Shown piece by piece: positions 7,501 to 26,536 of a stretch of 26,582 bases of DNA. This DNA is from an uncultured Oscillospiraceae bacterium. Lineage in GTDB: Bacteria > Bacillota > Clostridia > Oscillospirales > Oscillospiraceae. Numbering within the stretch: the stretch's first letter is position 1; each line of letters starts with the position of its first letter. A model generated the notes under the pieces. That model worked only from the letters and a program-made list of their open reading frames with translations. It did no database searches and was not told the DNA's origin. The position numbers were made by a program, and so were the translations under genes. The stretch is taken from positions 122,390 through 148,971 of the forward strand of contig CALWOP010000177.1 in NCBI GenBank assembly GCA_944383195.1, in the 5' to 3' direction.

Positions 7501-7545
7501 TATGCTATAATTATTATATAGTAAAAATAAAAGGTTGTGATTTAT

Positions 7546-8172
7546 ATGTGGACCATATATAGACACATCAATAAAATAAATGGAAAGTCATATATAGGAA
7601 AAGCAAAAGATGTGAATGATAGATGGGCAAATAATGGTAGTAAATATAAAACTTGTCCAAGATTTTGGTCAGCTATTGTTCATTATGGTTGGGACAACTT
7701 TGAGCATACTATTTTAGAAGATAATATAGATGATAAAGAGGTAGATGAACGAGAAAAGTTCTATATTAAATATTACAATTCTCTATATCCGAATGGCTAT
7801 AATTTAGCAATGGGCGGTTCTGGAGGAAATACCTGGGCAGGAAAGACATAGGAAGAAAAATAGAAATTTTCAGAAGAAAGAAGAAATGAGACTTTATCTC
7901 GTGGGGAAGATTGGCATAAAAAATTGTCTCAGGCTCAATATAATAGATGGTCAAAGGTAGAAGAAAAAGAAAAAATGTCCAATAGGGTTTCTGGTGGGAA
8001 AAATCCAATGGCTAAAAGATGCTTGTGTGTAGAGACTGGAATTATCTATAATAGCTATGCTGATGCAGCAGAAGAGTGTGGTTATCCCAGAAGTTCTGGT
8101 TCAAAAATTGGGATGGTAATACGAGGATAGAAGAAAACTTTTGCAGGATTTCATTGGAGATAGATAGATTAA
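7546..8172 (+). CDS. Free-standing GIY-YIG homing endonuclease carrying 4 in-frame TAG codons.
   Basis: GIY-YIG core: IYRHINKINGKSYIGKAKDVNDRW. The C-terminus has NUMOD-like DNA-binding repeats (GGKNPMAKRCLCVETGIIYNSYADAAEECG) that also occur in the intron HEG. Frame 1 is continuous through the TAGs at 7849, 7861, 8128 and 8161, ending in TAA at 8170. AAAGG precedes ATG 7546. Confidence 0.72.
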
Positions 8173-8190
8173 TTGTAGGAGAGTGTAAGA

Positions 8191-11100
8191 ATGGGTTATT
8201 TTAATAATCATAGCCATACTATGTATAGTAATTTAAGACTACTTGACTGTATTAATCGCCCAGAAGAATTGATAGATAAAGCAATTGAACTTGGTCTTAC
8301 TGGTATAGGGATTACCGATCATGAATCGTTAAGCGCTCACATGGCAGTTAATAAATATGCAAAGAAAATTAAAGAATCTAATCCAGATTTTGTTATTGCC
8401 CTTGGTAATGAGATTTATTTAACTGATACGAGGGATTTAGGACAAAGATATTATCACTTTATTCTTCTTGCAAAAGATGAAATTGGTTATAGAGGATTAA
8501 AAGAATTATCATCTATTGCATGGATGAATGGATATTATGATCGTAGAATGGAAAGAGTTCCTTTGCTTAAATCTGAATTAAAAGATGTAATGCAAAGATT
8601 TAAGGGACATATTATAGGAACTACAGCTTGTATTGGCGGAGAACTTGGCAGCACAATTCTTAATTTAGAAAACTGTGAGAAGGTAAATGATATTACTAAC
8701 GCGCAGCGTTATCATAAGCAGATAGTTGATTTTATGACTTTCTGTATAGATGTATTCGGTCATGATGATTTCTATATTGAGTGCGCTCCCGCCGCTTATG
8801 AAGATCAAATTATTGCTAATAAGAGAATGTTAAAAATCTCTGAGGCTTTTGATGTAAATATGTGTATTGGGACTGATGCTCATTATTTAACAAAAGAAGA
8901 TAGGTATGTTCATAAGGCATATCTTAATTCTAAAGGCGGAGAACGAGAAGTTGATAGTTTTTATGAATTTACATATCTAATGACCGAAGATGAAACTAGA
9001 GAATTACTCCGTTTGAGCTTTGAAGAAGATATTATTGATTGGATTTTTAAATGCTCAAACGAGATTAAAGATAAAATACAATTCTACTCATTGGAAAGAC
9101 ATCAATCTATTCCAGAAGTAGAAGTTACAGATTATCCTGCTATAAGTTGGTGGGGCGTAAATAATGATATTGCAGATGAAATGGCAAAATATCCAATTTT
9201 AAAATCATTATTTACTTCTGATAATATTCAAGAAAGATATTGGATTAATGAATGTTGGAAAGCATTAGAAGATAAAGGGATTGATTGGATAAATGATCCT
9301 AGATACCCAGAACGGCTCGAAGAAGAAGCAAGAGTAAAGAGAGTAATCGGCGAAAAACTACAAACCTGTATGTTTGCATATCCGAATACTCTAAAACACT
9401 ACGTTGATTTATTCTGGAATTGCGGAAGTACGGTAGGTGCGGGGCGAGGCTCGGCTTGTGCAGCTTTAAATCATTATTTGTTGGGAATTACTCAACTAGA
9501 TCCAATTGAATGGGATCTTCCTTTCTGGCGTTATATTAATGATGAAAGAACTGAATTAGGAGATATTGATCTCGATCTTGCCCCTTCAAAAATTCAGAAA
9601 ATCTTTTCTGAGATTCGCAAAGAGCGTGGAGAATTAGGATTAGTACAAGTATGTACTTTTGGTACGGAAGGAACTAAATCTGCTATTTTGACCGCTTGTA
9701 GAGGTTATCGTTCAGAAGAATATCCAGATGGAATTGACGTTGACATGGCTCAATATATGAGTTCTTTAATTCCTCAAGAACGTGGATTTTTATGGCCTAT
9801 TGAAGATGTTATTAATGGTAATCCAGAAAAAGGACGCAAGCCTGTTACAGTATTTGTAAACACTGTAAATCAATATCCTGGGCTTCTTGATATTATTACA
9901 AGGATTCAAGGTCTAGTAAATAAACGTTCAAGCCATGCTTCTGGAGTTATTTTATTTGATGAAAACATCTTTGATACAGCAGCAGTAATGAGGACTCCTA
10001 AAGGAGCTTTAATTACCCAATGGGATTTGCATGACCAAGAAGCTGCTGGTTCTGTAAAATATGATTTCCTGCTTACCGCAGTTCAAGACATTATTATTCA
10101 AACTATTTCTCTATTACAAGAAGATGGAGTTATTGAGAAAGATTTAACATTACGAGAAGTCTATAATAAATACCTCCACCCATCTGTCCTCCCGCAAAAT
10201 GATAAGAAAATGTGGGATGCTCTTGCTAATGGCGATGTTCTTGGATGTTTCCAGTTTGATTCTAGTGTTGGTGCACAAGCAGCTAAAAAGATTAAACCTC
10301 AGAATCCACACGAAATGGCGGATGCTAACGGATTAATGCGTCTAATGACTCAAGAAAAAGGTGCAGAAACTCCAATGGAGAAATATGTCCGCTTCAAGAA
10401 TAATATTTCTCTTTGGTACAAAGAAATGGATCAACAGGGTTTAACTAAAGAAGAGCAAAAAATTCTTGAACCTCATTTCTTACGTTCTTATGGCGTTCCT
10501 CCTAGTCAAGAACAAATGATGACCATGCTTCAAGACCCAAATATTTGCGGATTTACGCTCGCTGAGGCGAACGCCGCAAGAAAAATAGTTGGTAAGAAGC
10601 AAATGAATAAAATTCCAGAGTTAAGAGAAAAAGTTCTTAATTCTGCAAAATCTTCTGCTCTTGGTCATTATGTATGGAATTATGGTATCGGACCTCAAAT
10701 GGGGTATAGTTTCTCGATTATCCATGCTCTTGCTTATAGTTTTATCGGTATGCAAACCTTATATTTAGCAACACATTTTAATCCTGTTTATTGGAATACA
10801 GCATATCTGATTGTAAATAGTGGAGCTATTGATGAAGAAGAAGGAGAACAATCTGACTATACCAAGATTGCTAAAGCCATTGGAGAAATCCGTAATGCAG
10901 GTATAAAAGTATCTCTAGTAGATATTAATCACTCTGACTTTGGATTTAAGCCAGATGTGGAGAATAATCAAATCTTGTTTGGATTAAAAGGACTAGCTAA
11001 TGTTAATAACGATTTTATTAAAGATATTATTGATAATAGACCTTATGTATCTCTGCTTGATTTTCTCAATAGAGTGCATCCAAATAAGCAAGCTATGATT

Positions 11101-12099
11101 TCCCTTATTAAAGGTGGGGCCTTTGATCAATTTTCTTCTCGTATGGAAGCTATGATTGAATATATTTGGCTGACTTGCGATAAGAAAAAAAGATTAACCC
11201 TTCAAAATATGCCTGGATTAATTCGTTATGGATTATTGCCAGAAGATACAGAAGAGCAAGTTATGGCTCGTAGGATATACGAGTTTAATAGATATTTAAA
11301 AGCAGAATGTAAATGTGGTTTTAAACCAGATTATTTCATTTTAGATGAAAGGGCAATTAACTTTCTTACCGAGATAGATAAAGAATCTATGGTTGCATAT
11401 GAAAATAATAGATTCTTCCTTAATATGAAAGATTGGGATAAACAAATCTATCAACCATGGATGGATGTATTTCGAGCATGGATTTCCGCAAATAAAGAAG
11501 AAATACTTGATAATTTAAATACTGTTATCTTTATGGAAGATTGGAATAAATATGCTTCTGGGAATATTTCTTCTTGGGAAATGGAATCTTTATGTTTCTA
11601 TTACCATGACCATGAACTTGCAAATATAAACAATAGTAAGTATGGTTTTGTAGACTTCTTTAGTTTACCAGAAGAGCCTCAAGTAGAAAAGGTGTTTAAG
11701 CGTGGAGCATCTTTAATTCCTATTTATAAACTTCATAAGATTTGCGGGACCTGTATCGCAAAAAATAAGACAAAAAGTACGGTTTATCTTCTTACTACAA
11801 CAGGAGTAGTAGCAGTAAAATTCAGACAAGAATACTTTGCATTGTTTGATAAGCAGACTTTTCAAAGAAATGCTGATGGAACTAAGAAGGTTATTGAGAA
11901 GTCTTGGTTTAATCGAGGTAATATGATAGTTGTTCAAGGTATTCGCAGAGGCGATGAATTTGTTACTAAAAAGTATACAAGTTCTGGAGGACATCAACTC
12001 TATCATATTGATGAGATTGTAAACGGAACTGATTTAATTCTTCGTAGTGAGAGAAAACAAGGAGAAGAAGAAGATGAAGATAGTAGCATTGATGGGTGA
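8191..12099 (+). CDS. dnaE: DNA polymerase III alpha subunit (DnaE-type, PHP domain), 1302 aa. No TAG.
   Basis: N-terminal PHP motif HSHTMYSNLRLLD...GITDHESL. TAGGAGAG RBS. Stop codon is TGA. Confidence 0.85.
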   Translation: MGYFNNHSHTMYSNLRLLDCINRPEELIDKAIELGLTGIGITDHESLSAHMAVNKYAKKIKESNPDFVIALGNEIYLTDTRDLGQRYYHFILLAKDEIGYRGLKELSSIAWMNGYYDRRMERVPLLKSELKDVMQRFKGHIIGTTACIGGELGSTILNLENCEKVNDITNAQRYHKQIVDFMTFCIDVFGHDDFYIECAPAAYEDQIIANKRMLKISEAFDVNMCIGTDAHYLTKEDRYVHKAYLNSKGGEREVDSFYEFTYLMTEDETRELLRLSFEEDIIDWIFKCSNEIKDKIQFYSLERHQSIPEVEVTDYPAISWWGVNNDIADEMAKYPILKSLFTSDNIQERYWINECWKALEDKGIDWINDPRYPERLEEEARVKRVIGEKLQTCMFAYPNTLKHYVDLFWNCGSTVGAGRGSACAALNHYLLGITQLDPIEWDLPFWRYINDERTELGDIDLDLAPSKIQKIFSEIRKERGELGLVQVCTFGTEGTKSAILTACRGYRSEEYPDGIDVDMAQYMSSLIPQERGFLWPIEDVINGNPEKGRKPVTVFVNTVNQYPGLLDIITRIQGLVNKRSSHASGVILFDENIFDTAAVMRTPKGALITQWDLHDQEAAGSVKYDFLLTAVQDIIIQTISLLQEDGVIEKDLTLREVYNKYLHPSVLPQNDKKMWDALANGDVLGCFQFDSSVGAQAAKKIKPQNPHEMADANGLMRLMTQEKGAETPMEKYVRFKNNISLWYKEMDQQGLTKEEQKILEPHFLRSYGVPPSQEQMMTMLQDPNICGFTLAEANAARKIVGKKQMNKIPELREKVLNSAKSSALGHYVWNYGIGPQMGYSFSIIHALAYSFIGMQTLYLATHFNPVYWNTAYLIVNSGAIDEEEGEQSDYTKIAKAIGEIRNAGIKVSLVDINHSDFGFKPDVENNQILFGLKGLANVNNDFIKDIIDNRPYVSLLDFLNRVHPNKQAMISLIKGGAFDQFSSRMEAMIEYIWLTCDKKKRLTLQNMPGLIRYGLLPEDTEEQVMARRIYEFNRYLKAECKCGFKPDYFILDERAINFLTEIDKESMVAYENNRFFLNMKDWDKQIYQPWMDVFRAWISANKEEILDNLNTVIFMEDWNKYASGNISSWEMESLCFYYHDHELANINNSKYGFVDFFSLPEEPQVEKVFKRGASLIPIYKLHKICGTCIAKNKTKSTVYLLTTTGVVAVKFRQEYFALFDKQTFQRNADGTKKVIEKSWFNRGNMIVVQGIRRGDEFVTKKYTSSGGHQLYHIDEIVNGTDLILRSERKQGEEEDEDSSIDG

Positions 12100-12687: not shown

Positions 12688-13941
12688 ATGCTTCAAGTAA
12701 GAAAGAGAAATGGTATCTTAGTACCATTTGATAAAGAGCGTATTATTAATGCTATTAATAAGGCTTTTATTGAAGTTGATGGAGCTTTATATGAAGATGA
12801 TACTGCAAATGATATTGCAGATGAAATTAAATATGCAGTAAAAACTTCTGATGAAGTGGTTTCTGTTGAAAAAATTCAAGATATGGTAGAAGACTATCTT
12901 ATGAAATCTGAGCGCAGAGATGTTGCTAAAGAATATATAAGATATAGATATAAAAGAGAAATTGCGCGAAAAGGTTAGGATGATTTTATTAAGGCCTTTT
13001 CCGCAAAAATTCAAGGATCTGATATTGAAAACCAAAATGCTAATGTAGATGAAATGTCTTTTGGCGGTAGAGTTGGAGCTGCATCAGATCTACAAATGAA
13101 GAAGTATGCTCTTGATTATCTTGTTTCTAGTAAGTCAAGAGCTAATCATGAGAATAATGAAATCTATATTCATGATTTAAATGCTTATGCAGTAGGTATG
13201 CACAATTGTCTATCTATTCCTTTTGATGATTTGCTGGCAAAAGGATTTAATACTAGACAAACTGATGTGCGTCCTGCTGGTTCTATAAATACTGCTTTTT
13301 AGCTTGTTGCAGTTATTTTCCAGCTACAAAGCCTGCAACAATTTGGCGGGGTATCTGCTACTCACCTTGATTGGACTATGGTTCCATATGTAAGAAAGAG
13401 TTTCTATAAGCATTGGAATGATGGTATTCGTTATATTGGTCAAGAGATTATTCCAGATGAAATAACAGATATATTTAAGGGAAATAGAGAATTGCCTATT
13501 GATCAATACCCAAGAGATAATGAATACAGAAAGATATATAGATATGCTATAGAAATGACAGAAAAAGAAACTCATCAAGCTGTTGAAGGAATGTATCATA
13601 ATTTAAATACCCTTCAATCTCGTTCTGGAAATCAATTACCATTTACTTCTATTAACTACGGTACTTGCGCTCTTCCAGAAGGACGTATGGTTATTAAATC
13701 GTTGCTTGAAGTTTCCATAGAAGGATTAGGTAAATTACATAAAACTTCTATCTTCCCATGTGGCATCTTCCAATGTATGAAAGGCGTAAATAGAGCGCCG
13801 GGTGATCCAAACTATGATTTGTTTAGACTTGCTTTAAAGTCTACTGCTTTAAGATTATATCCTAACTATGCTAATGTTGATTGGACTGGTAATGCGGGAT
13901 ATGATAAAAATGACCCTAAGACTTATTTCAGTACCATGGGT
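12688..13941 (+). CDS. nrdD: Anaerobic ribonucleoside-triphosphate reductase NrdD, exon 1 (ATP-cone plus catalytic N-terminal part). Two in-frame TAG codons.
   Basis: ATP-cone N-terminus MLQVRKRNGILVPFDKERIINAI. The frame is continuous through the TAGs at 12976 and 13300. The exon ends ...YFSTMG at a U, followed by a group I intron (see the intron feature). Confidence 0.8.
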
Positions 13942-15078
13942 AAGCGTAAACTACAGCCCATGTAAAACCTTTTGAACCTCGCCCGAGGGTGTTTGCGGAA
14001 GTCCGATTAAAGATCGGTTTAGCAAAATCCGCAAGCTAACGGTTAGGTCCTATATGGATGAGACCGTGCTAAATTTCTAATAGAGTAAAAAATTTTGGTT
14101 AAAACTTTATAATGAACTTTGAATGGTTTTTATCTATAATAGAAGGTGCAGCACCTTTAATTGTTATTCAAAAGGAGAATATTCAATGTTCATCTATAAA
14201 ATTAGTAACACAGTAAATGATAAAGTGTATATTGGTTAGACGATTCGTCCAATAGAAGATCGTTTTAATAGACATATAAACGATGCTATGAACAATATTC
14301 TTGATACGCATTTTGCTAGAGCAATTAGACTTTATGGTCCAGATAAATTCTATATAGAATTATTGGATACTGCTAATAGTCAAGAAGAGCTTACTCAAAA
14401 AGAACGAGATTATATTCAATTATATAACTCTATTAAAAATGGATATAATGAAACTGATGCAATAAGCAAATGCGGAGGCAATACCTATAAGAATAAAACA
14501 AAAGAAGAAATGGACGTTATAAAAGAGAAAATTAGGTAGACCAAGCTTGGTGGGAAAAATCCCCATGCTGCTAAAGTAAAATGCAAGAATATTGAAACTG
14601 ATAAAGAATTATTTTTTGATAGTATGGCTGAATGTGCAGCATATTTTGGTAAAGATAATCATCAATTTATTTCTAGGAGATGCAGAGGAGAAGTAAAGAG
14701 TCTCTATGAAGGTAAATGGAAATTTGCATATCAAGATCAAGATTATAATATTTTTACCTCTAGACCAAACGCTAAAAGAACTAAACGTGTCGAAGTTTTA
14801 AATTTAGAAACTCAAGAAAAAGTAGTTTTTAATACAATGAAAGATGTTGATAGATATTGCGGCTTTGGCTTAGATTATACTAGTAAAAAATTTAAATCAA
14901 CTGGAGCTAAAGAGATTTACAGAAATCAATATAAACTTACTCTATTAGATTAAATGTGTATCGACTATCCCTGATGAGTGTAAGGGAGTAGGACTGGAGA
15001 TAGGCACCAGTTCGAAGCGGAAGGCTATCGAAAGATAGAATATATAGTCAGTGCTGATGGCAACATCAGATAATAATG
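13942..15078 (+). mobile_element. Group I self-splicing intron interrupting nrdD. It carries a GIY-YIG homing endonuclease ORF.
   Basis: The 5' exon ends CATGGGU at 13941. The intron's internal guide sequence GCCCAUG (13956-13962) pairs with it to form P1, with the U.G wobble at the splice site. The adjacent CUACA (13951-13955) pairs with the 3' exon start UGUAG (15079-15083) to form P10. The intron ends in G at 15078. The spliced junction reads ...STMG|CRTANG..., restoring a continuous NrdD frame. Structured GC-richer RNA flanks the HEG ORF on both sides. Confidence 0.75.
14186..14953 (+). CDS. Intron-encoded GIY-YIG homing endonuclease (I-TevI/II-like) carrying 2 in-frame TAG codons.
   Basis: AAAGGAGAA RBS. 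The GIY-YIG core reads FIYKISNTVNDKVYIG(TAG)T...RFNRH, which restores the canonical YIGQT if TAG is Gln. The C-terminal NUMOD-like region reads GGKNPHAAKVKCKNIETDKELFFDSMAECAAYFG. Stop codon is TAA. Confidence 0.75.
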
Positions 15079-16086
15079 TGTAGAACCGCAAATGGATTCG
15101 ACATTAATGGCTTAGGACAACAAAAAGATGGAAGAGGAAATATCTGTCCTGTAACTATTATCATGCCAACAATAGCTATGGAAGCTGTTACTCTAAGCGA
15201 CAATGACGATTGGAATCAAATTAAAGATTTGTCTCAAGATGAAAGAATAAAGATTGGCGTAGAAAGATTTATGGAACTTTTGGATACAAAAATCTATGAA
15301 GCTAAAGATATGCTGCTTGAAAGATTTGAATATATTTGCGCGCAGCCAGCTGAATCTGCTAAATTCATGTATGAGAATGGATTAATGGCTGGATATGATG
15401 GGATTTCTACTAGAAGCGCATTACAGCATGGTACTTTAAGCCTTGGACAAATTGGGCTCGCGGAAACACTTCAGATCTTGATTGGTTGTGATCATACTAC
15501 TAAAGAAGGTATGGAATTAGCAAAGAGAATTGAGAGTTTATTCAAGCAAAGATGCGCTGAATTTAAAAATCAGTATAAGCTTAACTTCGGGGTATATTAT
15601 ACTCCGGCCGAAAATCTTTGCTACACTTCTCTTGAAAAATTCAAGAAAAAGTATGGAGTAATTCCTAACGTAAGTGATAGAGAGTACTTTACTAATTCTA
15701 TCCACGTTCCCGTATGGAAACAAATCTCTCCATTTGATAAGATTGATATTGAATCTCAATTAACAGGATATTCTTCTGCTGGTTGTATTACTTATGTAGA
15801 GCTTGATAGTGGTGTGAAGAATAATATTGATGCTCTTGAAATATTAGTAAATTATGCCATGGATAAGGACATCCCGTATTTCGCTATTAATGTCCCTAAT
15901 GATACCTGTCTTGAATGTGGATATATGAATGAATTTAATGACCATTGCCCAGAATGTGGTAGTGATCATATTCAACAACTTCGTAGAGTAACAGGCTATC
16001 TTACTGGCAATTATAAGACAGCTTTTAATAAGGGCAAGATTGCTGAAACAGACGATAGAGTTAAACATGTGGGGTATATGGAATGA
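15079..16086 (+). CDS. nrdD: NrdD exon 2 (C-terminal part with zinc-ribbon and glycyl-radical motif).
   Basis: CxxC...CxxC zinc motif: CLECGYMNEFNDHCPECG. Glycyl radical motif RVTGYL. Stop codon is TGA at 16084-16086. Confidence 0.8.
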   Translation, partial: CRTANGFDINGLGQQKDGRGNICPVTIIMPTIAMEAVTLSDNDDWNQIKDLSQDERIKIGVERFMELLDTKIYEAKDMLLERFEYICAQPAESAKFMYENGLMAGYDGISTRSALQHGTLSLGQIGLAETLQILIGCDHTTKEGMELAKRIESLFKQRCAEFKNQYKLNFGVYYTPAENLCYTSLEKFKKKYGVIPNVSDREYFTNSIHVPVWKQISPFDKIDIESQLTGYSSAGCITYVELDSGVKNNIDALEILVNYAMDKDIPYFAINVPNDTCLECGYMNEFNDHCPECGSDHIQQLRRVTGYLTGNYKTAFNKGKIAETDDRVKHVGYME

Positions 16087-16747: not shown

Positions 16748-17221
16748 TTGAAATATGCAGGTATTATTTATAATGATTTTGCGGCAGCACCAGGTGTGTC
16801 CTTGAGTTTCTTTACTCAAGGATGCCCTAACCGCTGTCCGGGATGCCATAATCAAGAAACGTGGGATTTCGATGGAGGAAAAGAATTTACACATGAGGCT
16901 TTTACCTCTCTAATAGAAGGATTAACTGCAAATGGGATTAAACGAACTTTATGTGTAATGGGCGGAGAACCTCTTTGTCCAGAAAATTCTTTTCTCACGA
17001 ACTTAGTGATTCAAACCGCAAAAGAAAAAGTTCCAGATTTAAAAGTTTATCTATGGACTGGTTACTTATATGAAGATTTAAAAAAATCAACAGATACAAC
17101 TATTTAGAATATACTCCAATTAATTGATGTTCTAATTGATGGGCCTTATATTGAAGCTGAAAGAGATATTACAGAACCTCTAAGGGGTAGCCGCAATTAG
17201 AAGATTATATATCTAAAATGA
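16748..17221 (+). CDS. nrdG: Anaerobic RNR activating enzyme NrdG (radical SAM) carrying 2 in-frame TAG codons. TTG start.
   Basis: The N-terminus (MKYAGIIYNDFAAAPGVSLSFFTQGCPNRCPGCHNQETW) matches the NrdG N-terminus with its CxxxCxxC cluster. After the TAG at 17105 the C-terminal motif reads DGPYIEAERDITEPLRGSRN(TAG), the conserved GSxNQ. Stop codon is TGA at 17219. Confidence 0.8.
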
Positions 17222-17760
17222 TATTTTTTAAAAGTATCTTTGGAGGGATAATGATAGCAATAGCCAGCTATATTTATTTATCTGTTGGAGGTATAGTTGG
17301 TGCTATCATGTTCTCTATTGGCTTATTAACTATATTAAATATGGGATTTAAATTATTTACTGGCTCGGTTGGATATATCAAGAGCAAAGATGATATTAGA
17401 GATAATATTATTATTCTTATAGGTAATATTATTGGGGCTTGCGGGATTCTAGCTTTTCCGCACGCTGCAGCATTATCCTTGGTAGCCAGTAAGCTAACAA
17501 TTCCGCTATATTTAGTTTTCTTAAAAGGAGTAGTTTGTGGAATATTTATCTATTCTGCGGTTGCCTGTTTTAAGAAAAATAAAGATTATATGGTGCCAGT
17601 ATGCGTAACAGGCTTTATACTATTCGGAGGAGAACACTGTATTGCCGATCTTTGCTACGCCCTGGCCGCAAGCACCTTTTCTATTGATATATTATTATTT
17701 CTTATAGTAGTTACGATCGGTAATTCTATAGGAGCAATTATTGTTGACAGAATACAATAA
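17218..17760 (+). CDS. Integral membrane protein with about 5 TM helices. No TAG.
   Basis: Hydrophobic segments span the protein. A KLFTGS motif is faintly reminiscent of the FNT signature. The start overlaps the nrdG stop (ATGA). Confidence 0.55.
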   Translation: MIFFKSIFGGIMIAIASYIYLSVGGIVGAIMFSIGLLTILNMGFKLFTGSVGYIKSKDDIRDNIIILIGNIIGACGILAFPHAAALSLVASKLTIPLYLVFLKGVVCGIFIYSAVACFKKNKDYMVPVCVTGFILFGGEHCIADLCYALAASTFSIDILLFLIVVTIGNSIGAIIVDRIQ

Positions 17761-19370: not shown

Positions 19371-19934
19371 ATGATAAAGTTTGAAAAAGTCTCTCGTTTT
19401 AATGACATTGATCTACCCCTGCCAACACGAGCAACCGCCAATTCCGCGGGCTATGATTTCGTTGTTGCAGAAGATATTGTTCTTCCTCCCATGAGTTTTC
19501 TTACTTCCAAAGTTCAAGATCATGTATTTGAAGAAAATAAAGATTTAGACTTTTATGGCTTTACCAATCCATTTACTCTTGATGAAATGGCCAAGCTTAC
19601 GAAAAGTTTAAAGTCAAAGGTAACTCTTGTATCAACAGGAATGAAGTGCCATCTTAATCCTGGTCAATATCTTGAATTAAGCGTGCGGAGTTCCACTCCT
19701 CTAAAACACTGGATTATTTGTGGTAATAGTGTAGGTATTATTGACGCAGACTATTGTGATAATCCCGATAACGAGGGAGAGATTTTCTTCCAATTAATTA
19801 ACTTGTCTCCTTTTGCCATTAAACTTAATAGAGGAGATAAGATTGGTCAAGGTATTATTAAAACTTATGGAATTACCGACGACGACTCTGCTACAGGAGA
19901 GCGTTTAGGTGGATTTGGAAGTACAAGTAAGTGA
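19371..19934 (+). CDS. dut: dUTP diphosphatase (trimeric dUTPase). No TAG.
   Basis: All five dUTPase motifs are present: AGYDF, VRSS, GIIDADY, GDKIGQ and ERLGGFGSTSK. Stop codon is TGA. Confidence 0.85.
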   Translation: MIKFEKVSRFNDIDLPLPTRATANSAGYDFVVAEDIVLPPMSFLTSKVQDHVFEENKDLDFYGFTNPFTLDEMAKLTKSLKSKVTLVSTGMKCHLNPGQYLELSVRSSTPLKHWIICGNSVGIIDADYCDNPDNEGEIFFQLINLSPFAIKLNRGDKIGQGIIKTYGITDDDSATGERLGGFGSTSK

Positions 19935-20410
19935 GTAATTTACTATCTTTAGATTAGAGCTCTCGCATTACGGGATATGCTATCTTTGAAGATGGTAAAC
20001 TTAAGACTTATGGGAAATTCACTGTTGATGACGATAATACTGATATAAGATTAGTAAAGATACGATAGAAGGTTTAGGAATTAATAACTAGACATAACAT
20101 AGATGAAGTCGTATTTGAAGATATACAACAATAGAATAACGTTGCTAATAATGTGTAGACTTTTAAAATTTTAGCCGAGGTATATGGAGTAATCTCTGAA
20201 TATTTAGAAGAAAATAAAATACCTCACTCTACAATTTTATCAACCTCATGGAAATCTGCTCTTGGAATTAAAGGAAGAACAAGACCAGAATAGAAGAAAA
20301 ATGCTTAGAATTATGTATTTGAAAATTATGGAGTAAAGCCTACACAAGACGAGAGTGACGCAGTTTGTATCGGTCTCGCGCACATTAAATAGAGTTAGTG
20401 CGCTTGGTAA
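19931..20410 (+). CDS. ruvC: RuvC-like Holliday-junction resolvase carrying 9 in-frame TAG codons. GTG start.
   Basis: The N-terminus LLSLD(TAG)SSRITGYAIF resembles RuvC motif I (IDxGxxxxGxA). The C-terminus DESDAVCIGLAHI resembles RuvC's DAADALAIAICHA. The GTG start overlaps the dut TGA (GTGA). Frame 2 is continuous to TAA at 20408. Confidence 0.7.
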
Positions 20411-20477: not shown

Positions 20478-20496
20478 CTTACAATTGACCTTCATA

Positions 20497-20913
20497 ATGG
20501 AGCATATAGTAGAGATTATATTTGGCCTAATTTCCGCCGGCGCGCTTGCATTTTGTAGACACTTATATAAATAGCTAAAAGAGTATAAAAGTCTGCTTTA
20601 GGAGAAAAGAAATGATAATCTGATAGACCTTATAGACGAAAAGCTAAAACCTATTCTTGATGATATTGAAGAATTAAGAGCTTATATTCGCAAGATAGAA
20701 GGAAAAGAAAATCGAGATTTGACCCTTATTATTTCTTCTTATAGATTTAGATTAGTCTAGCTATGTAAGATTTATATTAAACAAGGATATATGACACAAG
20801 ATCAATATGATTAGCTTACAGAATTTTATAAGCTATATCATTCTCTAGGCGGAAATGGACAAGCTAAAGAGTATTATGAGAAAACAATGGAATTAGAGAT
20901 TAGACCAGAATAA
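20497..20913 (+). CDS. Small membrane protein of the BhlA/UviB (holin-like) type carrying 5 in-frame TAG codons.
   Basis: N-terminal TM segment IVEIIFGLISAGALAFC, followed by a charged coiled-coil and a C-terminal ...QGYMTQDQYDQLTEFYKLYHSLGGNG. The frame is continuous through the TAGs to TAA at 20911. No Shine-Dalgarno sits within normal spacing; the nearest one is inside the upstream hairpin. Confidence 0.5.
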
Positions 20914-20917
20914 TAAA

Positions 20918-20952
20918 AACGGGGAACTCAATTGAGTTCCCCGTTTCGTTTT
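20918..20952. terminator. Bidirectional rho-independent terminator between convergent genes.
   Basis: AACGGGGAACTC-AATT-GAGTTCCCCGTT, flanked by AAAAA upstream and TCGTTTT downstream. Confidence 0.7.
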
Positions 20953-21254
20953 AATCGGTTAAATATTGAATTAGTCATATTTATTATTTCTTGACCATAA
21001 GTTGCAATTAAATCCGCTAATAATTCTTCTTGTTCAAGAGATAATTCAATATTATAACTAAACATTGCAGCGTGTGTTAACTCGTGACATAAAACTTTTT
21101 TCATCATTAATGGAGATAATTCTTCATTAATATAGATTCCTTTAGTTTTATCATCACAGGCTCCTATTGTTAATTGGCCATCACTTCTAATTAACATAGG
21201 ATGAACTGGAGAGGTTAAAAATAATTTCCATTCTTCTCCATTAATATTAAGCAT
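20928..21254 (-). CDS. Small HExxH zinc-metallopeptidase-like protein (108 aa). No TAG.
   Basis: HELTH motif (VLCHELTHAAM) with a downstream Glu. Its ATG overlaps the upstream gene's stop (ATGCTTAA), suggesting translational coupling. Stop codon is TGA. Confidence 0.5.
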   Translation of the reverse strand: MLNINGEEWKLFLTSPVHPMLIRSDGQLTIGACDDKTKGIYINEELSPLMMKKVLCHELTHAAMFSYNIELSLEQEELLADLIATYGQEIINMTNSIFNRLKRNGELN

Positions 21255-21849
21255 GATTTAAAGAAGATACTTTTGTAGCAAGAGCAGAAATCTTTTTCTC
21301 TAATAGCTATTTTTCTTCTGGGCTTGCATCATCAATCATTTCTACTAAATCTTCACTTAATTCTTTCATATATTTATCTAACTCTCTAATCTTGGTATCT
21401 TTATCTTTATGAAGTTCTTTAGACTCCATATACATACGACGGCTCATTGGACTACGACCTTCTCTAGAATCTCTCAATTCCATAGGAAATTCTCTTTCAT
21501 CATAATAATAAGGTTTTTCTCTATAATTCTTGCGGCCGCCGCTATTACCCTCGGTAAATCTTCCCTAAGAATCTCTACCTTGAGGATAATACATTCTTCC
21601 CCATTCGTCTTTATCCATATCTCTATCTGGGAGATAATAAGGATAAGTCATAGGAATATAGTATTTTGTTGGTTCTTTTTCTTTTTCTTCCATAGCTTTG
21701 GTGATAGTACAATAATATATGGCTTCTTCTAAGTCTTTAATCATATCAATTACTTCACCAAGTTCGTGAGTATCTACATTATGGATGTCGCTTAGTTGAG
21801 CTTGAACGCATCCAATAAGAGTTTCCTTCATATGTTTTAATCTTTCCAT
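21247..21849 (-). CDS. Hypothetical protein (200 aa) carrying 2 in-frame TAG codons. It has a structured N-terminal region of about 60 aa followed by a Y/R/E/D-rich low-complexity region.
   Basis: The track ORF 21565..21849 ends at a TAG. The frame then continues (GRDS-Q-GRFTEGNSGGRKNYREKPYYYDEREF...) to TAA at 21247. Confidence 0.5.
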
Positions 21850-21884
21850 AATTAAGCCACCCTTTCAATAATTAAATTAGCGTT

Positions 21885-22274
21885 CTAAACATCAATAGCT
21901 TGAGTAGATAGATTCTTTACAGCTACTTCAAAGCAACATCCACGTGGGACATCTACAAAAATAGAACTAGATACGTTATTATATTCTCCAGTAGTTGCAG
22001 GAGTAGAAATCATAGTACTTGTGGCTACTCCTTCTCCATTAATAGCAATAGCTAAAGAAATTGGGTCTGCGGTCCCGCCTGTGGCGATCGCTATATTCCC
22101 GCTAAAAGTAATTCTATATCTAGCTCTGCATTGAGTTGTCGTATTTCCTTTTAAAGTTACTAGTCCACTGCCTGTACGGTGTAGTAGGCTGTTGGAACAG
22201 CCTACTACCGTATCAGTAAAAAGGACATTTTGATTAGCTTGTACGGTTTGTACAGCATTCGCAATAATTTCCAT
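21885..22274 (-). CDS. BclA C-terminal-domain-like (C1q/TNF jelly-roll-like) protein, 129 aa. No TAG.
   Basis: AAGGAGAG lies 10 nt before the ATG. The sequence has a beta-rich pattern similar to the BclA CTD (RYRITFSGNIAIATGGTADPISLAIAINGEGVATSTMISTPATTGEYNNVSSSIFVDVPRGCCFEVAV). Stop codon is TAA. Confidence 0.5.
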   Translation of the reverse strand: MEIIANAVQTVQANQNVLFTDTVVGCSNSLLHRTGSGLVTLKGNTTTQCRARYRITFSGNIAIATGGTADPISLAIAINGEGVATSTMISTPATTGEYNNVSSSIFVDVPRGCCFEVAVKNLSTQAIDV

Positions 22275-22303
22275 TGAACCAAATCTCTCCTTTATTAATT
22301 AAA

Positions 22304-23203
22304 TTAGCACCCGCAAGTGCTTACTCCATAGCAGCAATTAGGATTGGGTACTACATATGCGGGGACCGGACAATCGCGGCCCAGTCTACGGATAAGTTCT
22401 GCTTGATTTGCATCCATTGCTGCCATAAGGGTAGCGTTTTGAGTGCTTTGAGAAGCTGCAAGACGGAGTGCCTGATTCTCGTTCTGAAGATCTGTAATTT
22501 TCTCCTGGCAGAGATAATCAAGAATAGCACGAGTTCCAGCATTTTGACTATCAATAATATCACGAGTATTATTGGCCAAAGAAGTCTGGAGAGCAGAGGT
22601 GTTTGTTGCCATATTATAGTTGACATCGGCAAAGCCTCTCTCAATCTGGCGTCCGGTTTCGCAGCAACAATCTGCAATTTGACGAGAAATAGCATTTTGA
22701 TTAGTAATATTATCAAAATTAGCTTGCTAAATTGTAGATTTAGTATCGCAGCAACAATTAGAAAGCTGCGTAGCTAAAGCATTCTGTCCTTGCATTAAAG
22801 CAACGCTAGCATTATTAAATCCTTGCTGAGTCTGATAACCAAGCTGGCAAATTGCATTATCAACTCCGTGGAATCCATTAGTAAGAGAATTATTTAAGGC
22901 ATATGTGCTGTCGCAAATACCCTGTTGAATCCCTGTAATGCCGCTCTGAAGATTCTGTAATGCAAAACCTTCATTTATGTCTGCGCGAGTAGCCCAGCCT
23001 TGTCCAGAAGGAGAGCCGAGTCCTCCATTACCACTACCATATCCTCCACCAAAGCCAAAACCGTTTCCCCAACCAGAGAAACAGAAGAGGAAGAGAATAA
23101 TGATCCACCATGCGCCACCGTCGTTCCACATATTGCCGGACCCAGAATTTCCGGTCGCTGCCGCAATATCTGCTAAAGAGTATCCATTGTTAGAATTGAA
23201 CAT
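22304..23203 (-). CDS. Membrane-anchored Gly-rich, Q/N-rich protein (299 aa) with repeated CCC(D/E)T motifs and a Cys-rich C-terminus. One in-frame TAG.
   Basis: AAAGGAGGAA lies 8 nt before the ATG. TM segment AWWIIILFLFCF is followed by GWGNGFGFGGGYGSGNGG. The ORF is continuous from 23203 through a TAG at 22727 to TAA at 22304, joining the three track ORFs 22727..23203, 22351..22716 and 22304..22612. Cys motifs: NCCCDTK, DCCCETG and a terminal CPVPAYVVPNPNCCYGVSTCGC. Confidence 0.55.
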
Positions 23204-23216
23204 TTAAGTTCCTCCT

Positions 23217-23249
23217 TTAAGAAAATTTAAAGGCCGAGCATTTTCTTAA
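23217..23249. promoter_or_regulatory. Perfect 10-bp inverted repeat with a 13-nt spacer.
   Basis: TTAAGAAAAT-(13 nt)-ATTTTCTTAA. It overlaps the stop of the small upstream gene and lies about 14 nt upstream of the Shine-Dalgarno of the CCC-motif gene. Confidence 0.35.
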
Positions 23250-23460
23250 AGTTGGCAAACTCCTTATCGTAATCTAATCCTCTTTGAGACATAATATTTC
23301 TTGCTATTTGCTCAATTTCTGCTGTTTTATTCTATTTAGCCAGATCTAGCAAATTAGCTCCAAATGGATTATTCCCCATCTAGTTTTCTAACATATATAA
23401 TGCTAACTATTGAGGATTCTATCCATTCCTGATCATTTGAATTAACTCCATTGGGTTCAT
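23227..23460 (-). CDS. Hypothetical small protein (77 aa) carrying 4 in-frame TAG codons.
   Basis: AAGGAGAAG lies 7 nt before the ATG. The frame is continuous through the TAGs to TAA. Confidence 0.45.
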
Positions 23461-23472
23461 CTTATCTTCTCC

Positions 23473-23871
23473 TTAAAAATCTAATTTTGGCTTTGACTGT
23501 TGCGTCGTCTCTTGAGGCGGCGCAATTTTTTCTTTTAACTAAGCTAATGCGGTTTCAAATTCTTCCCTAGTAATATACTGAGAAGGATTGATAACTGTTT
23601 CTGTCGGGGTATTCTTTAATTCATAAATATTAAGAGTTGAAGTTCCATCAAGATTAATCTACTTTGTATATATCTTTTTATTCGCTAAGTCAGGAAAGAA
23701 AAATACTGAACCATCAAAGTCAATACTAGTCGCCTTTACTTCTTCGATTGAAGAAACTGGGCGACCTTTAATTCCAATCTAGGACTATTCCACATACTGC
23801 ATTCTCTATTGCGGCATATAAGGGGTGGCCGCAAATTGTTGTGGCATATAGTATGGATAATTGACTGCCAT
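23473..23871 (-). CDS. Hypothetical protein (132 aa) carrying 5 in-frame TAG codons.
   Basis: AAAGGAGGTAAAACT precedes the ATG. A protein-like sequence (GIKGRPVSSIEEVKATSIDFDGSVFFFPDLANKKIY...) reads through the TAGs. Stop codon is TAA. Confidence 0.5.
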
Positions 23872-23899: not shown

Positions 23900-23984
23900 G
23901 GCCTTTCATTGATATATAAAAATTTGGCAAAGATAATTTTACTATTTTGCCAAAAATTTTGCCAATTTTATAGTAAAAAAATAT
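23900..23984 (-). promoter_or_regulatory. Candidate promoter for the minus-strand cluster. It sits among TTGGCAAA / TTTGCCAA inverted and direct repeats that look like operators.
   Basis: Minus-strand reading: TTGGCA-(18 nt)-TAAAAT. Plus-strand reading: TTGGCAAAgataattttactatTTTGCCAAaaattTTGCCAA. Confidence 0.35.
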
Positions 23985-24006
23985 AATGGGGCGTAGTAGC
24001 CCCATT
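23985..24006 (-). terminator. Rho-independent terminator directly after the LL-H holin gene (minus strand).
   Basis: AATGGGGC-GTAGTA-GCCCCATT stem-loop, followed on the minus strand by UAUAUUUUUUUACUA. Confidence 0.55.
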
Positions 24007-24009
24007 ATA

Positions 24010-24394
24010 TTATTCTCTGTTCTTATTAACTTCGGCCTCGATGAGGTTAGTTAGATAAGTATTTAAGTCACCTGTAGTTTCAATAATATACTGCTTTGCA
24101 TCTTCTGATAAGATTTCTAATACTGCATTCATAGTCTTATTAAATGCAGTTTTCTGAGCTTCCGCATCAAAAGCATTCTGCTCTTTTAGACTATTTACAT
24201 AAGTTTGATTCGTTGCTATTACGCACTTTGTAATAGTATCAAAGATCATAGTAGTATATTTTTCAGCTGTCTCATTCTCTGTTTTAGCATTTAACTCATC
24301 TCGTTTTGCATTGAGATAGTCAACAAGATATTTAGTTAAAATACCAAGCAAAGGAATGATACAAAGCTAGAAGATCTGAATAATAATTTCTGGC
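24010..24394 (-). CDS. Phage holin, LL-H family-like (one N-terminal TM), carrying one in-frame TAG.
   Basis: AAAGGAGGAA RBS. TM segment MPEIIIQIF(Q)LCIIPLLGILTKYLV. The body (ATNQTYVNSLKEQNAFDAEAQKTAFNKT...EAEVNKNRE) resembles Holin_LLH. Stop codon is TAA. Confidence 0.6.
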
Positions 24395-24548
24395 ATAGTT
24401 ATAATTCCTCCTTTATATATTATATAAAACAAGAGGAAGATGATTTAACTATTATTGGCCTTATTACACTTTACTGAACTTGGACAACTATATATAATTT
24501 ATCTACTCTTTCTTTCAAATATATTTGAAAAGAGTAAGATACTCACTT

Positions 24549-24754: not shown

Positions 24755-26536
24755 TTGCCTAAATGTATTTTAACTGAATAGGGTGGAAAAGGCGGAGGAG
24801 GCGGCTCTATTTCCCTTATTAAGATTGAGGTAACAACTCCACCTAATAAAACTAGCTATCTCGCGGGCGACACCTTTAATCCTGCGGGAATGGTGATCAC
24901 CGCATCTTACGGCATGGAAGGCGTAGTTATTACAACGGCAGAAGTAACTGGCTATCAAGTTACTCCTTCTCCTCTTACTGATGGAACTCAGCAAGTAACC
25001 ATTACTTATTCTGAGCTGGGAGAGACTTGTCAAACTACTTATCCTGTAACTGTAACTCATAGACTTACAAGTATTGAAGTAACTTCTAATCCCTCTACTA
25101 TAACTTATGAGTATGGAGATACTCTTCAAACAACAGGAATAGTAGTTACTGCTCACTACTCTGACGGAGATACATCTGCGGTTTCCGGGTATCAATGCTC
25201 TCCAACCTCGCTTACTACAGTAGGTAGTCAACAGATTACAGTTAGTTATAGCGAGAATGGTGTAACTCAAACTACTACATTTAATGTAACAGTTAATCGT
25301 AAGTCTGTAGCTAAGCCAACTTGGAAGAGTAATCTCACCTATAATGGTAACTCTCAGTCTGTTAATGGAACAAGCTATTGGAATAACTTTAATACTACCT
25401 ATATGAGTATTGGTGGCACAACTTCTGCTACTAATGCAGGAACTTATACTGCTACATTTACTCCTGGTAGTAATTATCGTTGGTCTGATGGAACAACTGA
25501 TCCTATTAACGTAAATTGGACTATCAATCGTGCAGCCGGATCTTTAAGTGTGTCTCCTTAGACTGTTGAGATCAATGGTAATAACTATAGTTCTGGCGTA
25601 AATGTTACTATTACTCGCTCTGGAGATGGCGCTATTAGTTATAGTCCTACTAGTGTAAGCGGCTTAACTTTAAGTTTAAGTGGTAACACTTTAAATATTA
25701 AAGGTAATGGTTCTACTGCTATTAGCGGACAAAAAATTACTATCAATGTCGCTCAAGGAACTAACTACCTGGCTCCCGCAAGCAAACAGATTACTGTCAA
25801 TGCTACTTATTGGGAATGGGGCTCTGAAACCGCTGTAGGAGATGCCTCTTGGTGGGCTGGATTAAAAACTTGGGCTGCTAGTGCTAGCACTTCTGAAAGA
25901 AGCGCTTGTGTCGGTAAGAAAAAGAAAGTAAGTCTTTCTACTGCTGTGTTAGGTGCTAATCAAGCCTCTATGGTTTGTATTGGTGCAGACCAAGACGGAG
26001 CTGGTACTTTAACTTTCCAAACTGAAGGTACTTTACCAACTACTACTTAGTTTGGTAGTAATGCAGTATGGATTGGTTCTACTGCTAGAAGTCAATGTTA
26101 GAATTTCTACAATTATTGTAGTGCTAAAAATTCTATTAAGACTGTAAGTAAAGGTACTTGTCCTAGCACAAACGATTCAAGAAATGGCTCTGTAACTTAC
26201 AGCAACGAAACCGTATGGTTACCGTCTGAACGAGAGATGGGATTAGATAGCTATGCTCCAATTTCTACGGCCAATAGCACAACCTCTAAAGCTGAATGTA
26301 CAAAGGGTCATAATGCTGCCTATAGTTACTATACAAATAATAGCAGACGCATTAAATATCAGATGAACGCCAATGGTTCGTTGACGAGTTCAGCGTAGTG
26401 GTATTGGGAGAGGTCTCGTTATTACCGTTCGGACATCTCGACCTACGTTTGCGTTGTCGGCAGCGGTGGCTCTGCGGACTTCTACGGCTACTACATCGTC
26501 AGCCACGGGCTCGCGCCGGCTTTCGTTATCGGATAA
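24755..26536 (+). CDS. Ig-like (Big_3-type) repeat-containing protein (about 593 aa) carrying 5 in-frame TAG codons. The last roughly 45 codons are GC-rich and dominated by NNC codons, making them a candidate DGR variable region.
   Basis: GAAGGAGGTAAACAAC precedes TTG 24755. The frame is continuous through TAGs at 24776, 25559, 26047, 26098 and 26395 to TAA at 26534. Ig-like repeats include ITVSYSENGVTQTTTFNVTV and VTITYSELGETCQTTYPVTV. No signal peptide. Confidence 0.6.
26395..26536 (+). repeat. Candidate DGR variable region / GC-rich island at the 3' end of the Ig-like gene.
   Basis: About 57% GC against about 32% in the rest of the window. 22 of 36 codons are NNC (gac atc acc tac tgc gtc ggc agc ...). 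The window ends 46 nt downstream, so no template repeat (TR) or reverse transcriptase (RT) is visible. Confidence 0.35.

Follow-up and report, generated by a model that had tools for sequence, protein, structure and literature searches.

The stretch of DNA considered here, hereafter the window, comprises 26,582 nucleotides from an uncultured Oscillospiraceae bacterium (NCBI GenBank assembly GCA_944383195.1, contig CALWOP010000177.1, positions 122,390 to 148,971 of the forward strand) and contains, at 20928-23871 of the minus strand, six adjacent phage genes designated A to F. Together, these genes constitute a mobile accessory cassette of many gut phages, usually placed where the late genes end, behind those for lysis. 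Among the products, C is modeled as a membrane-anchored rod striped with cysteines, D as a jelly roll of the TNF/C1q/BclA type and F as a minimal zinc peptidase, and it is tentatively suggested that the ensemble forms a membrane-tethered complex acting at lysis or egress. The gene directly upstream of the cassette is referred to as G and the Big_3 gene beyond it as H.

The spread of the cassette was assessed by a scan of one genome per species, which yielded 80 loci, nearly all of them from Clostridia or Bacilli. The host bins belong to the Oscillospiraceae, Lachnospiraceae, Acutalibacteraceae and Ruminococcus or are unclassified; exceptions in the host list are a Collinsella metagenome-assembled genome (MAG), a 'Candidatus Onthomorpha' MAG and one unclassified bin, and cultured carriers comprise Anaerotruncus colihominis DSM 17241, Lachnospira intestinalis, Muriventricola aceti and Enterocloster hominis. 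Gene content was counted over 89 C-containing loci, throughout which the order A-B-C-D-E is always kept. A is present in 80 of these loci, almost always two genes upstream of C, and an open reading frame (ORF) of the size of B, about 70-85 amino acids (aa), lies directly upstream of C in 66, the B profile recognizing 48 of them. D occurs in approximately 50 loci and is replaced in 26 by a Cys-rich protein of about 137 aa, termed D', which brings the occupancy of this slot to about 76 of 89; likewise, E is found at the second position downstream of C in some 60 loci, while 13 feature a disordered protein ending in DUF7841 instead (about 73 of 89 together). Whether the cluster recurs in related phages, a question raised along with the original prediction that had been made from the letters of the window, is answered by close relatives on contigs of 95-176 kb, in which the succession G-A-B-C-D-E-F is kept in the same place, converging on replication genes. 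Moreover, a full A-E set resides in phage Ceridwen of the non-sporulating Butyrivibrio fibrisolvens. Among the homologues surveyed, all named or annotated sources are anoxic gut or rumen samples, most matches carrying no environmental label.

Two further genes are found in or beside the cassette. In Ceridwen, an ORF of 264 aa (L001 7178-7972) is inserted between the D and E homologues and belongs to a Cys-rich family of about 268 aa that is scattered around C loci (cluster 11); by its sequence the insert appears homing-endonuclease-like, and if so, selfish elements invade the cassette too. In the window, the last plus-strand gene before the cassette encodes a protein of 142 aa with an N-terminal transmembrane (TM) helix and a coiled-coil body, which matches phrog_4105 and phrog_4257, both of unassigned function. 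Its homologues form a neighbor cluster around C in 15 loci, 9 on the opposite strand and 6 upstream on the same strand.

The position beside lysis genes is a recurrent feature. In the window, the cassette adjoins the putative holin G, which matches a PHROG family annotated as holin (Table 1) and is predicted to consist of one N-terminal hydrophobic TM helix followed by a long helix; the lysis-proximal location noted in the original prediction is thus borne out. Homologues of G are found just upstream of A in the closest relatives (L004-L007 and L010) as well as in L016, L026, L034, L046 and L050. In bajarodcaudo virus 5, the cassette is preceded by genes for a holin and a C39-type lysin, in Ceridwen by those for a glucosaminidase lysin, a small TM protein and a sigma-like protein. 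The A. colihominis DSM 17241 prophage comprises a GH25 lysin, an F-like zincin, which here stands before A, then A, B, C, D' and the form of E that combines an intrinsically disordered region with DUF7841, followed by the host ruvB and a phosphoglucomutase-family gene, while in M. aceti an integrase gene comes after the cassette. In close relatives, XkdX-family genes are situated just upstream. Among 142 proteins encoded three to seven genes upstream of the cassette, the commonest recognizable families are Amidase_2 (9), sigma-70 region 4 (7) and holins (4), in addition to GH25 (3), minor capsid protein 2 (3) and CHAP (2).

Beyond the Firmicutes, C proteins with the same succession of TM helix, tether, rod, CCC motifs and tail are encoded by Bacteroides phage C3_41T2LP and by many crAss-like phages; they appear in the depositors' records under the unverified names 'spike protein/glycoprotein' or 'outer capsid protein/viral fiber'. 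In these phages, C is followed by a beta-rich Cys protein, a coiled-coil protein, an Arg/Asp/Tyr-rich protein of 74-77 aa and a zincin; the cassette of C3_41T2LP additionally contains DUF7841, and its zincin is matched by the F profile at 4e-5. No homology was detectable between the A family and the 177-aa coiled-coil protein of the Bacteroides phage, and demonstrably common across phyla are only C, the F-type zincin and DUF7841. In the crAss-like phage cr116_1, a holin and an L,D-carboxypeptidase are encoded upstream of the cassette, which occupies the interval between the endolysin gene and a gp31-like gene with about seven extra genes, including C. On the contrary, crAss001, a member of the same subfamily, proceeds directly from endolysin gp30 to gp31 and has no C homologue. 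Hence, the cassette represents an accessory insertion and is no part of a conserved crAss-like virion plan. Finally, a lone C homologue devoid of the Pro/Cys tail and of partners occurs in two viruses assigned to Methanomassiliicoccales; in one of them, Caudoviricetes sp. vir215, it lies after a tail protein and the reverse transcriptase of a diversity-generating retroelement (DGR).

Recognition of the cassette depends on the genetic code applied. Under the standard code (table 11) the region breaks up into short ORFs, while with TAG read as sense it resolves into six tightly packed minus-strand ORFs, and only under this code are the six co-oriented and tightly coupled genes described in the original prediction intact. 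Since no gene in the window stops at TAG, and since TAG sites in conserved columns mostly align with Gln of standard-code homologues (15 of 28 at position 130 of D, 25 of 59 at position 31 of A and 15 of 32 at position 18 of B), the assignment of the source phage as recoded, with TAG specifying Gln, is supported. In A, B and E, TAG accounts for 38-50% of the Gln-type codons. A tRNA search of the window returned none, suppressor tRNA included, and no Rfam family was found there. The recoding is not confined to late-looking genes: TAG makes up 46% of the Gln-type codons in a RecJ-like gene and 75% in a gene regarded as RuvC-like because it adjoins the dUTPase gene, as does a gene with a RuvC Pfam match in relatives, and 1 of 51 in the DnaE gene.

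The boundaries and junctions of the cassette largely correspond to what had been anticipated. The overlap of the ATGCTTAA type, first thought to recur between the genes, is restricted to the E/F junction, where the start of F overlaps the end of E by 8 nucleotides, while the claimed Shine-Dalgarno sequences do exist as AGGAG-type sites in the short spacers that form the remaining junctions. Terminator-like hairpins bound the cassette on both sides, as predicted, the one at its end being common to F and the convergent plus-strand gene; in the region, such hairpins number 10 sites as against 2.7 +/- 1.6 in shuffles. A promoter of its own was likewise claimed for the unit, and a weak promoter-like site is indeed present ahead of A, but such sites are no commoner than chance (19 versus 16.1 +/- 3.6 in shuffles), which leaves the promoter without statistical support. 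The remainder of the window is a plus-strand block of replication and nucleotide-metabolism genes that converges on F.

C, at 299 aa, is by sequence and model an integral membrane protein with one TM helix. The motifs quoted for it in the original prediction, GWGNGFGFGGGYGSGNGG, NCCCDT, DCCCET and the Cys-rich tail, are present, as is the CHELTHA of F. Its acidic N-tail bears a conserved SLxDIAAxTG motif and leads into the W-flanked TM helix at approximately residues 31-45 (helix 32-42 in the AlphaFold2 (AF2) model), which is followed by a Gly/aromatic tether at 43-72 with 14 Gly in 30 residues. The model then comprises a single long helix from 78 to 274 (about 200 residues, approximately 29 nm), whereas tether and tail are disordered. 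The tail contains a conserved CPxPAYVVPNPNCCYG...CGC stretch, kept as far as in Bacteroides phages; no clear correlation across loci was seen between the type of tail and a D or D' partner. The family-averaged hydrophobic periodicity of the rod is 3.65 residues, close to 11/3, and its phase is kept for about 200 residues; the moment is 18.3, compared to a mean of 4.9 and a maximum of 16.4 in 2000 shuffles. This period indicates a hendecad rod rather than a heptad coiled coil and is shared with tetrabrachion-type right-handed coiled coils and with 11-mer amphipathic lipid-binding helices, a likeness of structural class only that implies no homology. Conserved cysteines occupy positions 97, 119, 150-152 and 179-181 (the two CCC motifs), 232 and 297, with a further one at 203 in most homologues. 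The cysteines of the rod are placed mostly about 100 degrees off the hydrophobic stripe, an angle at which those of adjacent helices in a bundle could meet.

The statement that C belongs to no known family holds for curated collections, in that library scans and a single-sequence search of the PDB revealed no Pfam, NCBIfam or PDB relative; it does not hold for PHROG, where C falls into phrog_16490 (4.5e-64), a family of no assigned function. The family is large, with at least 8000 uncharacterized homologues at 90% clustering and 2950 clusters at 50% identity, none of them carrying a name or a Pfam domain, and in all of the best 150 listed of these 2950 clusters the length lies between 113 and 340 aa. 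Apparent fusions of B and C (L047, L053) proved to be an artefact of reading TAG as sense in standard-code genomes.

D measures 140 aa instead of the 129 aa first given, for the supposed stop at 21885 proves to be a TAG read in frame, and homologues measure 139-140 aa; phrog_20016, of no assigned function, is matched end to end (1.3e-49, 2-140 of 141). The fold originally proposed, a BclA C-terminal domain (CTD) or C1q head, is confirmed at the level of the model (pLDDT 85, pTM 0.80, 10 strands): Foldseek returned 9h38, 8d02, 7r1m, 9h3d, 1rj7 and 1wck with a probability of 1.0 and TM-scores of 0.65-0.76, headed by the F-BclA CTD (9h38; 2.4e-7, TM-score 0.71-0.74) and including BxpB (8d02), ExsFA/ExsF (7r1m), EDA, BclA (1wck) and C1q. 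D is thus modeled confidently as a stand-alone TNF/C1q/BclA-CTD jelly roll and, by its fold, is placed in this superfamily. Since neither a Pfam family nor a PDB sequence (phmmer and profile) was matched, the likeness to BclA is one of fold only. D features neither a collagen-like GXY stalk nor an exosporium leader, and NCBIfam, with its exosporium-leader model, gave no match for any cassette protein. Cysteines are conserved at 26, 49, 113 and 114, and structural twins, likewise stand-alone and 130-142 aa long, are encoded on gut metagenome contigs of sipho-, myo- and podoviruses. None of the 6539 homologues is named or carries a Pfam domain. Profile-profile comparison detected no homology of D with D' or with the proteins at the D position in Bacteroides and crAss-like phages, and the D' profile found no match in the PDB. 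To our knowledge, the TNF/C1q/BclA-type fold is trimeric in all characterized relatives.

The remaining non-enzymatic products are less defined. A is composed of a Q/Y/P/M-rich N-tail, a beta-rich domain of approximately 60 residues, a short amphipathic helix and a basic tail, and matches phrog_21718 (2.8e-8), again of no assigned function; its 5949 homologues include none with a name or a Pfam domain, and neither a profile search of the PDB nor a Pfam scan of 23 family members retrieved a relative. B is a small, helical-looking, Q/N-rich protein without a family match in Pfam or PHROG. In E, the low complexity that had been assigned to the C-terminal two-thirds is in fact limited to the middle third, flanked by a helical-looking N-part and a K/E-rich, likewise helical-looking C-part. 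This Tyr/Arg/Asp/Glu/Pro-rich middle, approximately residues 58-140 (Y12, R12, E8, P8 and D7 of 83), is probably disordered, and the same would apply to both low-complexity segments of the cassette, the Q/Y/P-rich one of A and the R/Y/D/E-rich one of E. The E of the window matches nothing in Pfam or PHROG, while phrog_28802 is matched, at 5e-49, by an E-family protein of another locus. Scans with Pfam, NCBIfam and PADLOC gave no significant match for A to E. As read from the sequences, A, B, D, E and F possess neither a signal peptide nor a lipobox; only C carries a membrane or export signal.

F is, as had been recognized, an HExxH mini-zincin by its sequence and hence a predicted minimal zinc peptidase, scoring 29.0 bits (1e-6) against Peptidase_M78 with a Pfam cut-off of 22, in a match that covers residues 36-75 only; phrog_1233, of no assigned function, is matched at 3e-15. 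CHELTHA and a subsequent QEE motif are kept in the consensus of 25 family members. F shares with the ImmA/IrrE peptidases of this family the HExxH motif in its typical context and a score above the cut-off; it differs in its length of only 108 aa, about 40 of which match, in the lack of an adjacent helix-turn-helix (HTH) repressor as substrate and in its replacement by a papain-like enzyme in other cassettes. A Pfam scan detected no HTH protein that might be the cognate repressor within the cassette of the window, while small sigma-70 region-4 or HTH genes lie upstream of some other cassettes. A zincin F occurs in 20-24 loci and a papain-like protein of 128 aa, usually encoded just upstream of A, in 31, yet never both together. 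This mutual exclusion suggests that a required peptidase step is supplied by non-homologous enzymes.

The reading that we favor, though with considerable doubt, is that the cassette encodes a membrane-tethered complex acting at lysis or egress. Because the cassette is co-oriented with the holin-like gene, we take it to be expressed late; and because it follows holin and endolysin genes in unrelated phages, with C as the sole product to bear a membrane or export signal, it is suggested to act at the cytoplasmic membrane when infection ends. C would oligomerize into a rod tethered to the cytoplasmic membrane, in which metal or disulfide bonds between cysteines might join adjacent helices. In exosporium assembly, the clefts of the ExsF trimer bind a Pro-rich leader peptide, and the attachment of BclA involves a peptidase step (PMC12357932). 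By analogy with the leader, the Pro-rich tail of C might dock a trimer of D; A, B and E would assemble on the resulting scaffold, while the peptidase would process or mature one of the components. The complete complex would then act at the cytoplasmic membrane during the opening of the cell at the end of infection, as an accessory to lysis or egress that might, for instance, affect the timing or completeness of envelope breakdown or release.

Two known systems lend themselves to comparison with such a complex. Like Rz, the i-spanin of the two-component pair Rz/Rz1 of lambda, C combines conserved cysteines with a long helical domain and a TM helix at its N-terminus, and its gene likewise stands beside holin and endolysin genes. 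A spanin-like set, as contemplated in the original prediction, nevertheless finds no support, as a lipoprotein partner is missing and most hosts are monoderm Clostridia; furthermore, C is twice as long as Rz, is built from hendecads and has four or five further conserved partners. No spanin PHROG was matched by C, the best spanin-profile match in the cassette being that of A at an E-value of 0.097, and as to the topology of an i-spanin, the TM helix and the long helix are present in C, while its acidic N-tail hints at the opposite orientation. In PBSX-type extended lysis regions of Firmicutes phages (XkdX, XepA, XhlA, XhlB, XlyA), accessory genes are located between the tail-fiber genes and the holin and lysin genes. 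These regions resemble the cassette in containing accessory beta-sandwich and membrane proteins of unknown mechanism, and XkdX-family genes precede the cassette in close relatives, as described above. In contrast to them, the cassette lies downstream of the holin gene instead of upstream, and Pfam and PHROG scans yielded no homology to XepA or XhlA.

Several points weigh against a complex acting at lysis or egress. No homology ties A to E to lysis, so that the argument is one of position and architecture, and temperate phages classically place their morons in this very slot behind the lysis genes, for which reason position alone does not prove a role in lysis. Phages bearing the cassette already possess ordinary holin and lysin genes, a terminator stands between the cassette and G, and a set of six genes with disordered proteins and a TNF-fold head looks unlike any known lysis regulator. 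Moreover, TAG is frequent in some genes of the replication block as well (13 in the RecJ-like and 9 in the RuvC-like gene), hence recoding alone does not mark the cassette as late. With regard to the proteins, we infer the interaction of C with D, the oligomeric state and the cysteine chemistry; the pLDDT of the C model reaches 70-89 from about residue 140 onward but is low upstream of it; and the N-tails of the C family, which average 0.97 K+R versus 3.1 D+E, lack the positive charges usual for a cytoplasmic N-terminus and hint at an orientation with the N-terminus outside and the C-terminus inside. Lastly, D is replaced by proteins without detectable homology in about one-third of the loci and in Bacteroidota phages, and a BclA-like head is therefore not universal.

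Among the rival explanations, an unlikely yet serious one regards the cassette products as virion-associated accessories, C and D constituting a fiber, a decoration or a membrane-inserting ejection device on or in the particle, with the hydrophobic Gly-rich N-terminus of C as fusion or pilot peptide and A, B, E and F as assembly factors. A role as tail-fiber accessory proteins, contemplated in the original prediction, is conceivable. This would accord with the cassette adjoining tail-fiber or DGR-target genes at the end of the late block (H in the window, as well as cr52_1 and vir215) and, in crAss-like phages, separating lysis from capsid genes, with the fiber-shaft-like appearance of the long hendecad rod and with the missing export signals, which virion parts would not need. 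TNF/C1q heads commonly tip phage fibers, and the Foldseek matches of D include the short tail fiber of cyanophage A-1(L), the central spike knob of phi812 and many collagen/C1q phage proteins. The occurrence of C in viruses of hosts with very different envelopes would fit a target in the gut environment or in the cytoplasmic membrane. However, among the virion proteins of tailed phages, genuine W-flanked TM helices are rarely seen outside tape-measure and ejection proteins; one and the same cassette is carried by podo-, sipho- and myovirus-type genomes that share no common accessory virion architecture; and crAss001, the virion of which has reportedly been solved by cryo-electron microscopy, is devoid of it. 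The depositors' 'fiber' and 'spike' names, which might be cited in favor, are unverified annotations of a helical rod, and none of the PHROGs matched by the cassette carries a structural annotation. It is improbable, in turn, that the cassette is a conflict or moron module, that is, a membrane device for superinfection exclusion, anti-defense or another benefit of phage or lysogen over competitors. The cassette is plainly an accessory that moves horizontally, brings terminators and a promoter-like site of its own, is often accompanied by a small sigma-70 region-4 or HTH protein and may lie at the end of a prophage beside integrase or host genes (L054, L039), and the combination of a membrane anchor and a long helical tail is reflected in a weak match to the ZorA coiled-coil tails of Zorya (E-values of 0.002-0.02). 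That match, though, concerns coiled coil only, and no component gave a significant match in PADLOC-DB 2.0; known exclusion systems comprise no more than two genes and contain neither disordered nor TNF-fold components; and the carriers include virulent crAss-like phages and large, seemingly virulent phages. In the present phage, furthermore, in-frame TAG ties the translation of A to E, though not of F, to the recoded state, which argues against expression from a silent prophage and renders lysogenic conversion unlikely, an argument that is softened by the TAG-rich replication genes.

The resemblance of D to exosporium proteins gives rise to two further explanations, which are best judged against the exosporium nap and F-ENA tip of the Bacillus cereus group. 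BxpB, ExsFA and BclA carry no export signals and assemble within the cytoplasm of the mother cell. Their compact TNF/C1q jelly roll recurs in D, which, like BxpB and ExsFA, stands alone; export signals are absent and a proteolytic step is involved in both cases; and C would be a long, trimer-compatible stalk whose Pro-rich terminal peptide recalls the ExsF-docked leader (PMC12357932). Unlike the nap proteins, D lacks membership by sequence and the cassette lacks a collagen repeat, while the stalk of C is an alpha-helical hendecad rod with a TM anchor and carries its Pro-rich peptide at the C-terminus rather than the N-terminus; besides, the cassette genes are phage genes beside lysis genes, and their hosts include non-sporulators. 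A cross-linked protective or aggregating matrix released with the virions, analogous to the exosporium nap or to viral occlusion bodies, is very improbable. It would make use of the many conserved cysteines of C and D, of the low-complexity segments of A (Q/Y/P) and E (R/Y/D), which are typical of self-associating proteins, and of a peptidase step such as BclA attachment needs (PMC12357932), and would suit the anoxic gut or rumen origin of all named sources. The reasoning is nonetheless purely analogical: library scans revealed no homologue of the lattice-forming ExsY, CotY or polyhedrin, the TM anchor of C is ill-suited to a free matrix, and no such structure has been reported for tailed phages. 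In a bolder form, which is distinctly improbable, a membrane-tethered rod-and-head assembly, nucleated on C and D, with cysteines or metal as cross-links and the sticky, disordered A and E as filling, would be built in gut anaerobes of different phyla and leave with the lysate so as to protect, cluster or anchor virions in the gut, unlike any known tailed-phage structure. Extremely improbable is the spore- or exosporium-modifying moron put forward in the original prediction, the products of which would enter the coat or exosporium of the host spore. Apart from the fold of D, it could appeal to protein compositions that recall coat proteins and to the predominance of Clostridia phages, many of whose hosts sporulate. 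Yet this explanation is already largely refuted by the host range, since C and an F-type zincin occur in a similar layout in Bacteroides and crAss-like phages, Butyrivibrio phage Ceridwen carries the full A-E set and a lone C is found in predicted Methanomassiliicoccales viruses; in addition, neither Pfam nor NCBIfam gave a match to a coat or exosporium family or to the exosporium-leader model, and in the window the cassette is late and TAG-dependent in a large, seemingly virulent phage. The weight remaining beyond all these readings, the membrane-tethered complex included, falls to something else.

A literature search found no paper on the cassette proteins, on DUF7841 or on BclA/exosporium proteins in prophages, and a Crassvirales review and a stop-codon-recoding preprint treat spanins and lysis genes in general terms only. 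As far as the libraries and literature searched show, the cassette is undescribed; its newness consists in the lack of matches, with no new function demonstrated. The cassette ranks among the commoner unexplained gene sets of gut phages, being present in thousands of phages across morphotypes and host phyla, and the assignment of a function would annotate thousands of genes at once. Moreover, it could reveal a release step, a trait of particle biology or a form of phage-phage conflict peculiar to anoxic gut communities. Experiments are within reach, given the full cassette of the cultured phage Ceridwen, the C and F-type zincin of C3_41T2LP and the prophage in the type strain A. colihominis DSM 17241, which has a complete genome and offers A, B, C, an F-like zincin and the alternative D and E types.

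Table 1. Coordinates of the cassette and of further features of the window; for the homologue in vir215, coordinates refer to its own locus.
Feature	Position	Strand	Remarks
A	23473-23871	minus	132 aa, 5 in-frame TAG
B	23227-23460	minus	77 aa, 4 in-frame TAG
C	22304-23203	minus	299 aa, 1 in-frame TAG
D	21852-22274	minus	140 aa, 1 in-frame TAG
E	21247-21849	minus	200 aa, 2 in-frame TAG
F	20928-21254	minus	108 aa, 0 in-frame TAG
G, holin-like, directly upstream of cassette	24010-24432	minus	phrog_13712 (annotated holin) at 5e-33
Promoter-like site TTGGCA-18-TAAAAT	23936-23965	minus	10/12 consensus positions; weak
Terminator-like hairpin between G and cassette	23980-24011	minus	13-pair stem, then T run
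Bidirectional terminator-like hairpin closing cassette	20916-20947	both	13-14-pair stem, T runs on both strands
C homologue in Caudoviricetes sp. vir215	L090 5878-6759		TM helix and both CCC motifs; recorded host Methanomassiliicoccales
H, Big_3 gene	24755-26536	plus	593 aa, Big_3 Ig-like repeats
Coiled-coil protein gene, last plus-strand gene	20485-20913	plus	142 aa
RuvC-like gene (by position)	19931-20410		9 in-frame TAG
Formate/nitrite transporter family gene	17218-17760		180 aa, PF01226 at 9e-17
Probable NrdG-type activase gene	16748-17221
nrdD, C-part	15076-16086
GIY-YIG endonuclease ORF in nrdD gap	14123-14953		Pfam 5e-9
nrdD, N-part	12688-13965
DNA polymerase III alpha gene	8173-12099
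Second, free-standing GIY-YIG ORF	7537-8172		Pfam 1e-8, 4 in-frame TAG
P-loop-like gene	6319-7500		393 aa, GYAGTGKST start
Candidate secreted endolysin gene	4788-5591		267 aa, Phage_lysozyme2 at 8e-18
RecJ-like gene	3033-4784		13 in-frame TAG

Several genes in the remainder of the window merit mention. The nrdD gene, for the anaerobic ribonucleotide reductase, is split into two parts about 1.1 kb apart, and the gap, which contains an ORF for a GIY-YIG endonuclease, looks like an intron with a homing endonuclease; relatives possess a single NrdD of 741-756 aa, and no Rfam group I intron was found in the window at gathering score. The second GIY-YIG ORF is flanked by the P-loop-like gene and the gene for DNA polymerase III alpha. 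In the replication block, far from G, a protein with a signal-peptide/lipobox-like N-terminus (...LLSMVCSCNS...) and a Phage_lysozyme2 domain constitutes a candidate secreted endolysin of the phage. A membrane protein of the formate/nitrite transporter family, an unusual phage gene, is kept in relatives, and beside it lies a probable NrdG-type radical-SAM activase, as judged from the Fer4_12 and Radical_SAM matches of the positional counterpart in relatives. Beyond G, the homologues of H in relatives also carry DUF6273 and adjoin a reverse transcriptase (RVT_1; L004 2098-3819 with L004 1-1103), which suggests that a DGR targeting a fiber protein may be located just past the window; DGRs also adjoin the C gene in cr52_1 and vir215.

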